Shown here piece after piece: positions 12,525 to 33,239 of a DNA stretch of 38,485 nt; position 1 is the stretch's first letter, and each line of letters starts with the position of its first letter. The notes under the pieces were generated by a model. That model was not told the DNA's origin, searched no databases, and saw only the letters and a program-made list of their open reading frames with translations. Where the stretch lies: assembly GCA_016969615.1 (NCBI GenBank), contig GCA_016969615.1_4548.1. One strand, given 5' to 3'. The position numbers and the translations under genes were made by a program. Origin of the DNA: a phage.

Positions 12525-12630
12525 ATGATAATTCTCCTATTCAATTGAAATATAAAGTTTATTACTTACTGTACGCCCAATCCGTATGGACTGAAGTAAT
12601 AGGGAAACCTTGAGTCTGTATCTTGGTCTC

Positions 12631-12648
12631 CCTATAGTGATAGTTTAG
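12631..12648 (-). promoter_or_regulatory. Phage RNA polymerase promoter core upstream of gene 10
   Basis: minus CTAAACTATCACTATAGGGAGACC; transcript start can fold GGGAGACC...GGUUUCCC like the T7 phi10 leader. Confidence 0.85.
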
Positions 12649-12650
12649 TC

Positions 12651-13535
12651 CTACAGGCTCGATGCAGCTACCTTAGCGCGAACTTCCATCGTGTACTTAG
12701 CGTCACGCAGGTATCGCGGGTCACTCATAGCCTTAATCATGTCAGCCTTAGAGCTGAATGCTTCGGTCTTAGGAGCCTTAGGTGCTACCACAGGTTTAGC
12801 CTGAGTGGTGATGGTACGCTGAGGTTTAACTCCTACAGCTTTACCAAGTGTCTTTCCAGCAAGATTCAGCAGAGCTTTGGTAGTCGCAATGTCCTTACGA
12901 ACGATAGCAGCTTCCAGTGCTTCACGAGTTGACGGGTCGGTTGACTCAAGGTGGGACAGGATTCGATTAAACTGTTCAGCTCCACCAGCGTAGCGAACCA
13001 CGCCAGCAGCATATTGTTCAGCCAGAGCTTCCTGACCACGGACAAACGAATCTACGAAACGCTTGGTGTAACCTGCTTCCTGCAACTTAGCGTAGGATGC
13101 GTCAGACAGCTTACCGTCCTTGGCGTATTCAGCCTTGATAGCGGTAATTTCATCAGCAGTGACCTTGCCAGCTTCCACAGCAGAAGACACCATGTCGTCG
13201 AATGCAGCTTCGTTTTCATCCAGCGCGGTGACACTTTCAGTCAGCTCTTTCGGTGCATCACCCAGTTCGATGAACTCAGGCTGCTCACCATCGGTCTCAG
13301 ACTCTTCGTCATCGGACTCGTGGTCTTCTTCACCTTCAGTCTCTTCGACGTTCTCGTCTTCTTCGGTAGCCTCTTCGTTTTCGGCTTCCAGTTGCTTGAA
13401 GGTAATAGCGTCGTCGCCATCACGAACAGCTACGTCCTGTTCAAGCATAGACTTTTGGTGTTCGTTCAGGTCCTCAACGGAACCAGTGATTGCATTAGAG
13501 CTAACGCCGAACTCGGCATAAACTGATTGAGACAT
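12651..13535 (-). CDS. gp9: Capsid assembly (scaffolding) protein
   Basis: acidic protein; C-terminal KAMSDPRYLRDAKY and SYAKLQEAGYTKRFVDSFVRGQEALAEQY match T7 gp9; likely start ATG 13535 after AAAGGAGAA (track ORF begins at upstream GTG 13574). Confidence 0.88.
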   Translation of the reverse strand: MSQSVYAEFGVSSNAITGSVEDLNEHQKSMLEQDVAVRDGDDAITFKQLEAENEEATEEDENVEETEGEEDHESDDEESETDGEQPEFIELGDAPKELTESVTALDENEAAFDDMVSSAVEAGKVTADEITAIKAEYAKDGKLSDASYAKLQEAGYTKRFVDSFVRGQEALAEQYAAGVVRYAGGAEQFNRILSHLESTDPSTREALEAAIVRKDIATTKALLNLAGKTLGKAVGVKPQRTITTQAKPVVAPKAPKTEAFSSKADMIKAMSDPRYLRDAKYTMEVRAKVAASSL

Positions 13536-13565
13536 TGAGTCGTTCTCCTTTAAGTCGTTAATAGG

Positions 13566-13659
13566 TAGAGCCACTCAAAGTGGGACCTGTAGGATGACTG
13601 AGGCTCAATACCCACGGTCATTGTTTGCGCTACAGTAAGTCCCACTTTGAGTGGCTCTA
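13566..13659 (-). repeat. Long near-perfect inverted repeat in the gene 9 leader
   Basis: tagagccactcaaagtgggac (13566..13586) is the exact reverse complement of gtcccactttgagtggctcta (13639..13659); a 6-bp extension follows a 3-nt bulge. Confidence 0.7.
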
Positions 13660-13665
13660 ATTGTT

Positions 13666-13683
13666 CCTATAGTGATAGTTTAG
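13666..13683 (-). promoter_or_regulatory. Phage RNA polymerase promoter core upstream of gene 9
   Basis: minus CTAAACTATCACTATAGGAACAA; overlaps gp8 stop. Confidence 0.85.
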
Positions 13684-15248
13684 GCTTGAGCCATGTCCTC
13701 ACCAGCTACTTGTCCAACAGTAGCGCCCATGTTAGCACCAGCAGCAGACGCACCGTTGACCACAGCTCCTTGAGCGGATTGTTCAGCCATACGTTGCAAC
13801 TTCTCGTCCTGAGTCAGCAGCAAACCAGCAGTGTCAATACCTAAGGCATTCAGCAGCCGCAGCTTCAGGGTCGGCAAGTTAATGTCTGGGTCCTGTTGCA
13901 GAGACTGTAGCCCGGTCATCATGTCTACTGCCTGAGTTAGCTTCTCTAAGTCCTGACCACGGCCCAGAGCTTCAAGACCAGTGGAGACAGTAGGCTCTAC
14001 CGCTTCTTTCGGAAGGTCAGGAATCATGCCAGCAGACTGAAGCTGGTTCATCAGCACACGGACGATAGGTAACTGAAGCTCTTGTGATTGTACTGAGTAC
14101 ACGCCACCTAAGGTCGCCTCCAGTTCGCCAGCAACATAACGAATCTCTTCAGCAGTGACCCGCTCGGCATTACGCTGAACAGCACTATTAAGAAGGAAGG
14201 CCCAGCCTAAACGTTGCTCGATAGCGTCAGCCACAGACTTAGCAATCGTAAAGTCCTGACCTTTCGTCAGTTGCAGGAAGTTGATGTCCTCAACGCGACC
14301 AGCCACGAACTCACCTGTAGCCGCCTTGTTCAGACGTCGAGGTTGCGTGATACCGTTCGGGTTAACGAGGCCAACCACCTTGGAGGCTACCTTAGCCATT
14401 TTGGTGATAGCTTCTGTAATCGTCTCCAGCGAGTTCAGGTCTCCCAGATACTCCTCGCAGTAAGAACGACCGTAGTCTTCACCATCCAGTCGAACCATTC
14501 GTACCGGGATGTATGGACATGCAGTCAGCGGGTAGGAACCATCGGTCCCTGTCACCTCAATGCCTTCCACTTCCTCGTAGCGCAGATACTCGTCGTCCTG
14601 ACGGTAGATGTGCGTATACACTTCAAGCTCGGTGTCAGGCTCATAGTCGTCTGCATTGAGTTGAGACTTCACGTCCTCCGGTAGAGCACTAAACGCTACC
14701 TTGTCGAGAGTCACAATCTGCAAGATGTTACCGAACGCATCACGTTGAACAACGTAAGACACTAAGCGGTACATGCGCATCGGACTGTAGGTTCCTTGTT
14801 CTGGTGGAGGGATGTAGAGCAGGCAGTTACCTGAGACGATAAGCTGCTTCAGCGCCTCGAACAATGGGACACGGAAACTGTTAGTCTCCATGTAGGCCAT
14901 CAACACACGCTCGACCATAGCCAGCCCTTCGTCAACACGAGCAGCCGCCTCTGAGTCCTGACTCAAGGTCTTTGCCTCATATTCGGAGACTGTCAGTCGC
15001 ATCCACGGTGACTGAGGGAATAACGCCAACATCAGCTTTGCAGCCAAGTTGTTCAAGCAGCGAGCACCTACAGCTTGCCACGGCGTCACGTATTCCGTAG
15101 AGGAGTTATCTGACTCCTTAGGAAATAGAGAGGGGATGGTCACGGCAGCACAGTTCTGAGCGCGTGTCTCATATGGCTGTCGTCCGTTCTTTAGTCTATC
15201 ATAAACTGCCTTCGCGCCTTCGGCAGCAAAGCCTTCACGTTCAGCCAT
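13680..15248 (-). CDS. gp8: Head-to-tail connector (portal) protein
   Basis: 522 aa; long identity to T7 gp8 (YETRAQNCA, IPSLFPK, YRLVSYVVQRDAFGN, GLVNPNGITQPRRL, ERVTAEEIRYVAGELE). Confidence 0.95.
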   Translation of the reverse strand: MAEREGFAAEGAKAVYDRLKNGRQPYETRAQNCAAVTIPSLFPKESDNSSTEYVTPWQAVGARCLNNLAAKLMLALFPQSPWMRLTVSEYEAKTLSQDSEAAARVDEGLAMVERVLMAYMETNSFRVPLFEALKQLIVSGNCLLYIPPPEQGTYSPMRMYRLVSYVVQRDAFGNILQIVTLDKVAFSALPEDVKSQLNADDYEPDTELEVYTHIYRQDDEYLRYEEVEGIEVTGTDGSYPLTACPYIPVRMVRLDGEDYGRSYCEEYLGDLNSLETITEAITKMAKVASKVVGLVNPNGITQPRRLNKAATGEFVAGRVEDINFLQLTKGQDFTIAKSVADAIEQRLGWAFLLNSAVQRNAERVTAEEIRYVAGELEATLGGVYSVQSQELQLPIVRVLMNQLQSAGMIPDLPKEAVEPTVSTGLEALGRGQDLEKLTQAVDMMTGLQSLQQDPDINLPTLKLRLLNALGIDTAGLLLTQDEKLQRMAEQSAQGAVVNGASAAGANMGATVGQVAGEDMAQA

Positions 15249-33064: not shown

Positions 33065-33239
33065 ACAGATAGAGACTCAGAGACAGACCGATAGTCCCAA
33101 CCTATCGTCCCGACCTCCAGCCATAGCCTAGACCTATCGTCTTGACCATCGGCCCAACCTTATGATATACTGGGGTAGGGCCTTTGGTCTGGACTGAAAG
33201 AGGGCCTATGGGGAGACTTGAGGTTCTTGAACTGTGAGA
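33065..33239 (-). repeat. Candidate terminal-repeat region / physical genome left end (single junction copy)
   Basis: minus strand from 33239 reads TCTCACAGT...CCCCATAGG...GTCTCTGAGTCTCTATCTGT, resembling the start and end of the T7 terminal repeat as recalled; extent is a guess. Confidence 0.3.

Follow-up and report, generated by a model that had tools for sequence, protein, structure and literature searches.

A conserved 21-bp inverted repeat as a candidate structured RNA cassette in the gene 9 leader of Kayfunavirus phages

The 38,485-nucleotide phage contig analyzed here (GCA_016969615.1_4548.1 of assembly GCA_016969615.1, hereafter the window) contains a perfect 21-bp inverted repeat between its genes 8 and 9, the pairing of which is conserved among related phages and the stem of which is under purifying selection. 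The repeat is probably one allele, termed type A, of a structured RNA cassette residing in the leader of the gene 9 late mRNA, where it would insulate or stabilize the transcript and would probably be cut by RNase III. We assign this combined reading a probability of roughly 0.6. The hairpin is best classed with the leader hairpins and RNase III-type signals known from T7-group phages, as a new member of unusual length.

The window is a Kayfunavirus, a member of the K1F/EcoDS1/SH3 group of T7 relatives rather than T7 itself, and the closest phage record shares at most ~95% identity with it over 20 kb. The genome is stored as its reverse complement and in a circularly permuted form, with every gene located on the minus strand. 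Reading along that strand, the end of gene 8 (portal) at 13680 is followed by a phage promoter, the inverted repeat, a conserved block, and finally the gene 9 ATG. The phi9 promoter ACTATCACTATAGGAACA at 13662-13679 is an exact match to the consensus and places +1 at G13667. The full 23-bp promoter (13662-13684) extends over the stop codon of gene 8 (13680-13682), and its 23-bp homologue is labelled 'phi9' in the records of both EcoDS1 and CR44b. The conserved block, CCTATTAACGACTTAAAGGAG, contains the gene 9 Shine-Dalgarno sequence AAGGAG (13545-13550), while gene 9, encoding the scaffolding protein, begins with the minus-strand ATG at 13535-13533, the homologous ATG being the annotated gene 9 start in SH3, EcoDS1, and CLB_P1. 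Thus, an earlier note made from the letters of the window was right to place the repeat between the gene 9 promoter and its ribosome binding site, the strand in question being the minus strand. The features of the locus are given below in the order in which they are transcribed, followed by a short open reading frame that overlaps them.

13662..13684, minus strand: phi9 promoter for the phage RNA polymerase, its 23-bp extent set by analogy to EcoDS1
13660..13667, minus strand: transcript nucleotides 1-8 (GGAACAAT), unpaired in type A according to folds and the comparison of cassettes
13639..13659, minus strand: hairpin 5' arm in the mRNA (+9 to +29), UAGAGCCACUCAAAGUGGGAC, from the repeat search and the fold
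13636..13638, minus strand: 3-nt bulge, UUA in the 5' strand of the mRNA (TAA on the plus strand), read from the sequence
13587..13635, minus strand: upper hairpin, from folds and alignment
13566..13586, minus strand: hairpin 3' arm in the mRNA (+82 to +102), GUCCCACUUUGAGUGGCUCUA, from the repeat search and the relatives
13533..13565, minus strand: conserved A/U-rich spacer CCUAUUAACGACUUAAAGGAGAACGACUCAAUG, invariant in alignments A1 and A2
13557..13652, minus strand: GTG open reading frame, found in two GenBank records (L075 171-266, EPr2_0044; L078 171-266, AREXTEPB_0066)

A repeat search of the window returned arms at 13566-13586 (TAGAGCCACTCAAAGTGGGAC) and 13639-13659 that are 21 nt long, 100% complementary, and separated by a 52-nt gap, which agrees with the exact arms and the separation of about 52 nt reported in the earlier note. 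Its further description of a 6-bp extension past a 3-nt bulge (CTGTAG at 13587-13592 opposite CTACAG at 13630-13635) and of a palindrome, CCACT-CAA-AGTGG, within each arm is likewise borne out by the sequence. A 5-bp palindrome with a loop of 3-5 nt is found in 1.7% of shuffled arms, although this was a post hoc test. Among perfect inverted repeats of the window with spacers below 120 nt, this one, at 21 bp, is the longest, the runner-up measuring 12 bp, and no further copies of the arm with up to three mismatches were detected in the window (0 expected). The entire hairpin occupies +9 to +102 of the phi9 transcript, or 94 nt, and 16 nt separate its base from the gene 9 Shine-Dalgarno sequence downstream. 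In the upper hairpin, beyond the bulge, the 6-bp helix (CUGUAG/CUACAG) is followed by a G-C pair and an internal loop, and then by a 5-bp helix (AUGAC/GUCAU) topped by a weak apical stem-loop. RNA folding, which the earlier note had proposed as a check, yielded -53.3 kcal/mol for the 94-nt RNA in the mRNA sense (z = -9.2 vs. shuffles) and -56.1 kcal/mol for the antisense (z = -8.7). Among all 110-nt folds of the window, on either strand, those at the locus are the most stable, with values of -54 to -59 kcal/mol vs. a window mean of -26.5 (sd 5.7). The GC content of the element (0.50) is the same as that of the window (0.50), and that of the leader is 0.47.

The pattern of variation among related phages indicates which part of this structure is maintained. 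In alignment A2, which comprises 13 copies of the element (10 distinct), just 3 of 56 stem columns vary, compared to 35 of 80 third-codon positions within the adjoining 40 codons each of genes 8 and 9 from the same phages, which served as a near-neutral yardstick (Fisher p = 3e-7). The hairpin interior, with ~12 of its 36 columns varying, differs from the stem (p = 8e-4) and is no different from the third-codon yardstick. Since the stem columns vary less than the yardstick, whereas the interior does not differ from it, it is the stem and not the loop that is under purifying selection. Every sequence retains all 31 pairs of the lower helix, including the full 21 arm pairs in 10 distinct relatives, and all three stem changes preserve pairing. 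In seven phages, A-U has become G-C through changes on both sides (5 vs. 5 distinct sequences), while in HC12, 6925, and 01KA, a G-C pair has become G-U, the same change creating an A-C mismatch on the opposite strand. A relative from IMG/VR (L015/L104) carries three inserted nucleotides that are an exact match in pairing to the bulge, which extends the stem to 30 perfect pairs. The earlier note had made conservation of the pairing in related genomes its own test, and the pairing is conserved. As covariation, this signal is thin, consisting of one compensatory pair plus one wobble that possibly reflect few independent events, and one of the covariation controls was borderline (3/500). Moreover, both the two-sided changes and the bulge fill-in could also be produced by template switching on a quasi-palindrome.

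Two of these changes bear upon the nature of the conserved feature. The A-to-G change found in 7 of the 13 copies disrupts the internal palindrome of both arms and leaves arm-to-arm pairing intact. Because only the palindrome is broken, the long helix rather than the internal palindrome is the feature that has been conserved. Meanwhile, the G-U wobble is available exclusively on the mRNA-sense strand, which is also the strand of the genes and of the nine phage promoters found in the window. Within the preferred explanation, the element works as RNA in the mRNA sense.

The distribution of the element is narrow. A sensitive blastn search recovered the 94-nt element from 14 of 50,697 phage records, all of them Kayfunavirus, each with one copy and always in the gene 8/9 spacer. 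One IMG/VR contig contains it as well, and searches of 5,426 E. coli genomes and 72,556 plasmids returned no match. A 17-nt arm probe produced 39 and 15 matches in metagenome and genome collections, respectively, all of which were to a single arm in unrelated taxa, with both arms found in no contig. We estimate this to be about the number expected by chance at that database size. Among 219 related records sampled, there was no empty site. Since the element occupies one slot only and the matches elsewhere are confined to single arms, it is not a dispersed repeat or a mobile element, and this candidate was rejected given its single copy at a single locus and the lack of copies in the E. coli genomes and plasmids. 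At a permissive threshold, Rfam contained no matching family, the only matches being sub-threshold ones to microRNA precursor models, which is the signature expected of any long hairpin. When the records are sorted by host, type A is found in 5 of 15 Enterobacter-phage, 4 of 92 Escherichia-phage, and 0 of 59 Salmonella-phage records, and this excess among Enterobacter phages may reflect phylogeny. Two records, 'Acinetobacter phage vB_Aba_01KA' (PV615262.1) and 'Staphylococcus phage MBBL139' (OR786095.1), are ~96% and ~90% identical to the region, respectively, and their host labels look doubtful.

Approximately 200 other Kayfunavirus records match the flanks of the element (90-99% identity), but not its middle. 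The phi9 leaders taken from 6 records and 35 IMG/VR loci (including L001-L017 and L083-L106) fall into no fewer than nine cassette types, i.e. type A and at least eight unrelated ones, which lie between GGAACAAC and CCTATTAAC and have flanks that are 95-99% identical. The leaders range from 60 to 138 nt, the shortest being 60 nt, and the cassettes are mutually unalignable (z < 1 vs. shuffles), the exceptions being the two type D members, which can be aligned, and types F and G, which are weakly similar. Type A was considered as a possible descendant of the EcoDS1-type cassette due to the GTCCCAC and AAAGT motifs common to both, an idea that was rejected, as their alignment scores only z = 0.7 vs. 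shuffles. What the cassettes do share is a helix in which the first part of the transcript pairs with a segment just ahead of the conserved block. Examples of this closing helix are GGAACAACG/CGTTGTTCC in the sampled locus L088 and ACGGGACA/TGTCCCGT in IME177, and it is also found in the phi9 leaders of both T7 (GGGAGACC/GGTCTTCC) and T3 (GGGAGACC/GGTTTCCC). The end-to-end duplexes of the nine cassettes, T7, and T3 rank among the top 0.1-5% in comparison to random 16-mers from the window. No phage sampled has an empty phi9 slot. Given that unrelated cassettes all close with a helix, the slot needs a hairpin rather than any given sequence. The phi10 leader, which served as a control, is homologous throughout at the same loci (24 relatives sampled). 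Judging from these sequences, cassette type is not tracking overall genome relatedness, as the genome nearest to the window, BDX03P1 (95%), has an EcoDS1-type cassette.

Within this series, type A is distinct in two respects. Its stem alone begins at +9, vs. +1 to +7 in the others, and its stem alone is perfect over 21-30 bp, vs. 6-10 bp in the others. The nucleotides of its unpaired GGAACAAT serve in other leader cassettes as the 5' arm of the closing helix. The suggestion in the earlier note of a stability element is supported for the general role of the slot, since all phi9 leaders examined are closed near the 5' end, while it fits type A itself less well, as its first 8 nt are unpaired. 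A broader proposal would be that the phi9 leader of K1F-like phages is a swappable, fast-turning-over RNA-hairpin slot, with turnover driven by host systems that sense hairpins or palindromes and with type A as a specialized variant. RNase III, SbcCD, Lamassu/DdmABC, and RNA-sensing defenses would be candidate drivers, and type A might then exploit RNase III or act as a double-stranded RNA decoy or trigger. We regard this proposal as unlikely.

According to the preferred reading, the type A hairpin is carried both by transcripts initiated at phi9 and by read-through transcripts from upstream late promoters. The hairpin would isolate the leader as its own domain and thereby keep the A/U-rich ribosome binding region from pairing with upstream sequence, while blocking both the 5'-to-3' scanning of RNase E and the entry of 3'-exonucleases into the gene 8 RNA. 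Host RNase III would bind the 21-bp helix (30 bp in L015/L104) and cut both of its strands, which is to be expected because an uninterrupted 21-bp helix corresponds to two A-form turns. Such a cut would separate the gene 8 RNA from the gene 9-10 RNA and provide the gene 9 mRNA with a defined, processed 5' end. The analysis establishes that the repeat exists, its position and strand, the conservation of its pairing, and the purifying selection acting on its stem; the effects on stability and translation as well as the cleavage itself we infer, and we place the chance that RNase III cleaves the hairpin in vivo at even or slightly better.

The earlier note had suggested an RNase III substrate, which is plausible. 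In E. coli, the typical substrate of RNase III comprises two helical turns, both strands of which are cut, internal loops restrict cutting to one strand, and a regular helix in which certain positions are G-C pairs can be bound by the enzyme without cleavage (PMC1540722). The cleft of the enzyme takes ~22 bp (PMC6212723). Compared to a required length of ~20-22 bp, or two turns, type A offers 21 Watson-Crick pairs plus 6 (30 in L015/L104), and it is located where a processing site would be anticipated, at phi9 in the stretch that separates the gene 8 stop codon from the gene 9 ribosome binding site. In this respect, it resembles the T7 and T3 sites (R6.5, R13, R3.8, R4.7, and others), which are similarly hairpins of about two turns situated in an intercistronic leader, next to a late promoter and ahead of a ribosome binding site; host RNase III would be expected to act on any helix of this kind. 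However, it also departs from them. The T7 sites contain an internal loop that yields a single cut, whereas the type A stem is perfect and lacks any T7-type internal loop or bulge where it would be cut, its sole irregularity being the 3-nt bulge at the upper end of the stem. In the T3 record, RNase III stem-loops are marked at phi6.5 and phi13, both late promoters, and these T3 stem-loops enclose the promoter and are consequently present only in read-through RNA, whereas the type A hairpin lies wholly downstream of +1. No homology to the R sites of T7 or T3 was detected by blastn against the 50,697 phage records, which returned only the 14 records of the same element, or by Rfam. The earlier note remarked that T7 lists no processing site at this position; this holds for the T7 and T3 records, although the window is a Kayfunavirus and not T7. 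The T7 record lists only a promoter between genes 8 and 9, an RNase III site at phi9 is unannotated in the T7, T3, and EcoDS1 records, and the EcoDS1 record annotates no RNase III site anywhere. The literature yielded no transcript-mapping study of Kayfunavirus and no study of RNase III in K1F-like phages.

Further arguments can be raised against parts of the preferred reading. Firstly, a double-strand cut would deprive the gene 9 mRNA of its hairpin and give it a monophosphorylated single-stranded 5' end, which usually destabilizes mRNA. Secondly, 5'-terminal protection is disfavored, as the hairpin begins only at +9; according to work attributed to the Belasco laboratory, classical protection of this type reportedly needs a stem within ~2-4 nt of the end. 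The latter point also sets type A apart from the stabilizers exemplified by ompA and by the phi10 leader GGGAGACC..GGTTTCCC, the T7-group version of which is used in pET vectors. Like these, type A is a 5'-leader hairpin positioned right after a phage promoter and upstream of a free ribosome binding site, with an A/U-rich conserved spacer. Unlike these, all of its copies leave the first 8 nt unpaired, and a stem close to the 5' end is instead found in the other cassettes, T7, and T3. The window encodes a phi10 leader of its own (12525-12632, minus strand), in which a classical T7-type stem-loop is followed by a second conserved hairpin.

A further comparison can be made with the Correia elements of Neisseria, ERIC, and REP, which are palindromic repeats that, once transcribed, form hairpins that are sensitive to RNase III or stabilize the mRNA, and which are both multi-copy and mobile. 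Similar to Correia elements, type A is an inverted-repeat unit of ~100 nt with TA at both ends that is transcribed within an operon. Unlike Correia elements, ERIC, and REP, it is single-copy and restricted to one slot of one phage genus. A terminator scan detected no intrinsic terminator on either strand, the stem being followed by CCUAUUAACGAC with no U run, and both a terminator and a sigma-70 promoter were rejected as identities of the element, as none was found.

Among the alternatives, the one closest to the preferred reading holds that the hairpin is stable and never processed, serving as an insulator, an RNase E obstacle, or a 3'-exonuclease barrier that RNase III does not cut or from which it is excluded by antideterminants. 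The phi9 leaders of T7 and T3 are consistent with such a role, as both are closed at +1 without an annotated RNase III site, and so are the 6-10 bp closing helices of the other Kayfunavirus cassettes, which resemble protective 5' stem-loops; the ability of RNase III to bind some G-C-patterned helices without cleaving them (PMC1540722) points the same way. On the other hand, an uninterrupted Watson-Crick helix of 21-30 bp is of canonical cleavage length, and a free 5' tail of 8 nt is a poor fit to a classical 5'-terminal protector, which together render this alternative possible, if doubtful. It is also conceivable that the repeat is a mutational by-product of little function, namely an inverted duplication generated by template switching with its arms kept identical by quasi-palindrome correction. 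A slot that accepts at least nine unrelated sequences of 60-138 nt, the lack of any related donor sequence found outside of it, and the fact that both the L015/L104 fill-in and the two-sided A-T to G-C change are outcomes of such correction are all compatible with this scenario. However, the arms vary ~8-fold less than adjacent synonymous sites, and neutral conversion between arms should not reduce the rate of change. The closing helix of every unrelated cassette argues for selection upon structure as well. Furthermore, palindromic DNA of T7-like phages, an RNase III site included, triggers the Lamassu system DdmABC in Vibrio cholerae (PMC11707656), which suggests that long perfect repeats carry a cost at the DNA level. 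Because palindromes can trigger this system, the benefit of a 21-30 bp repeat presumably outweighs that cost, and we consider a by-product of little function decidedly unlikely.

The repeat might instead operate as DNA, whether as a cruciform or secondary origin, which the earlier note had raised, as an operator pair (CCACTCAAAGTGG occurring twice, 73 bp apart), or as a miniature mobile element. The element does fold strongly as single-stranded DNA (-32.4 kcal/mol, z = -8.7), a 5-3-5 palindrome like that of each arm is present in only 0.6-1.7% of shuffled arms, and the TA at both ends of the repeat is what a TA target duplication would leave. Nevertheless, most of the evidence runs in the opposite direction. 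T7-type replication origins consist of a phage promoter followed by an AT-rich segment, whereas the element has a GC content of 0.50 and no AT-rich tract, and its 52-nt spacer disfavors cruciform extrusion. Its occurrence as a single copy in one slot, with no empty site and no copies in E. coli genomes or plasmids, is unlike a mobile element. The A to G change of 7 of the 13 relatives destroys the internal palindrome and keeps the pairing of the arms, and the change found in three relatives is a mismatch in DNA and a strand-specific G-U pair in mRNA. For these reasons, the cruciform or origin was abandoned, and a DNA-level role of any kind appears very improbable. Lastly, the 31-codon GTG open reading frame inside of the hairpin could be a gene, as the records of EPr2 (EPr2_0044, phanotate score -0.307) and vB_Aba_01KA list it as a hypothetical protein. 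It lacks a Shine-Dalgarno sequence, its GTG falls within the 21-bp stem, a 1-nt insertion in EcL30g causes a frameshift and an early stop, the remaining changes in the stem alter amino acids (His to Tyr and Phe to Leu), and most records leave it unannotated. A protein-coding role is scarcely credible, and the reading frame is probably an over-annotation.

Should the type A hairpin be a true RNase III site, K1F-like phages would possess a late processing site of their own ('R9') that is missing from T7 and T3, and processing signals in the T7 group would be gained and lost as interchangeable leader cassettes. For the annotation and engineering of Kayfunavirus, which includes several therapy candidates, the comparison suggests the simple rule that the gene 9 leader needs a hairpin and is otherwise free in sequence. 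In our view, this hypervariable phi9 slot, which demands a hairpin and no particular sequence, is a by-product of the analysis that is of greater interest than the type A hairpin itself. As a long perfect repeat, type A is also a candidate trigger of palindrome-sensing host defenses, and Lamassu DdmABC is a possible driver of cassette turnover.

Several additional observations concern the remainder of the window. The core of the phage promoter, (A/G)CTATCACTATAGG, is present in nine copies (at 695, 7977, 12627, 13662, 16483, 25251, 27020, 30548, and 33793), all on the minus strand, and phi9 is the only one of the nine to be followed by a long perfect hairpin. By comparison with EcoDS1, the physical ends of the genome and its terminal repeat map to 33071-33239 (and 33086-33220), the window being a circularly permuted assembly with one copy of the terminal repeat. 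Within this terminal-repeat region is also found the 110-nt fold that ranks second in stability in the window (about -45 to -49 kcal/mol).
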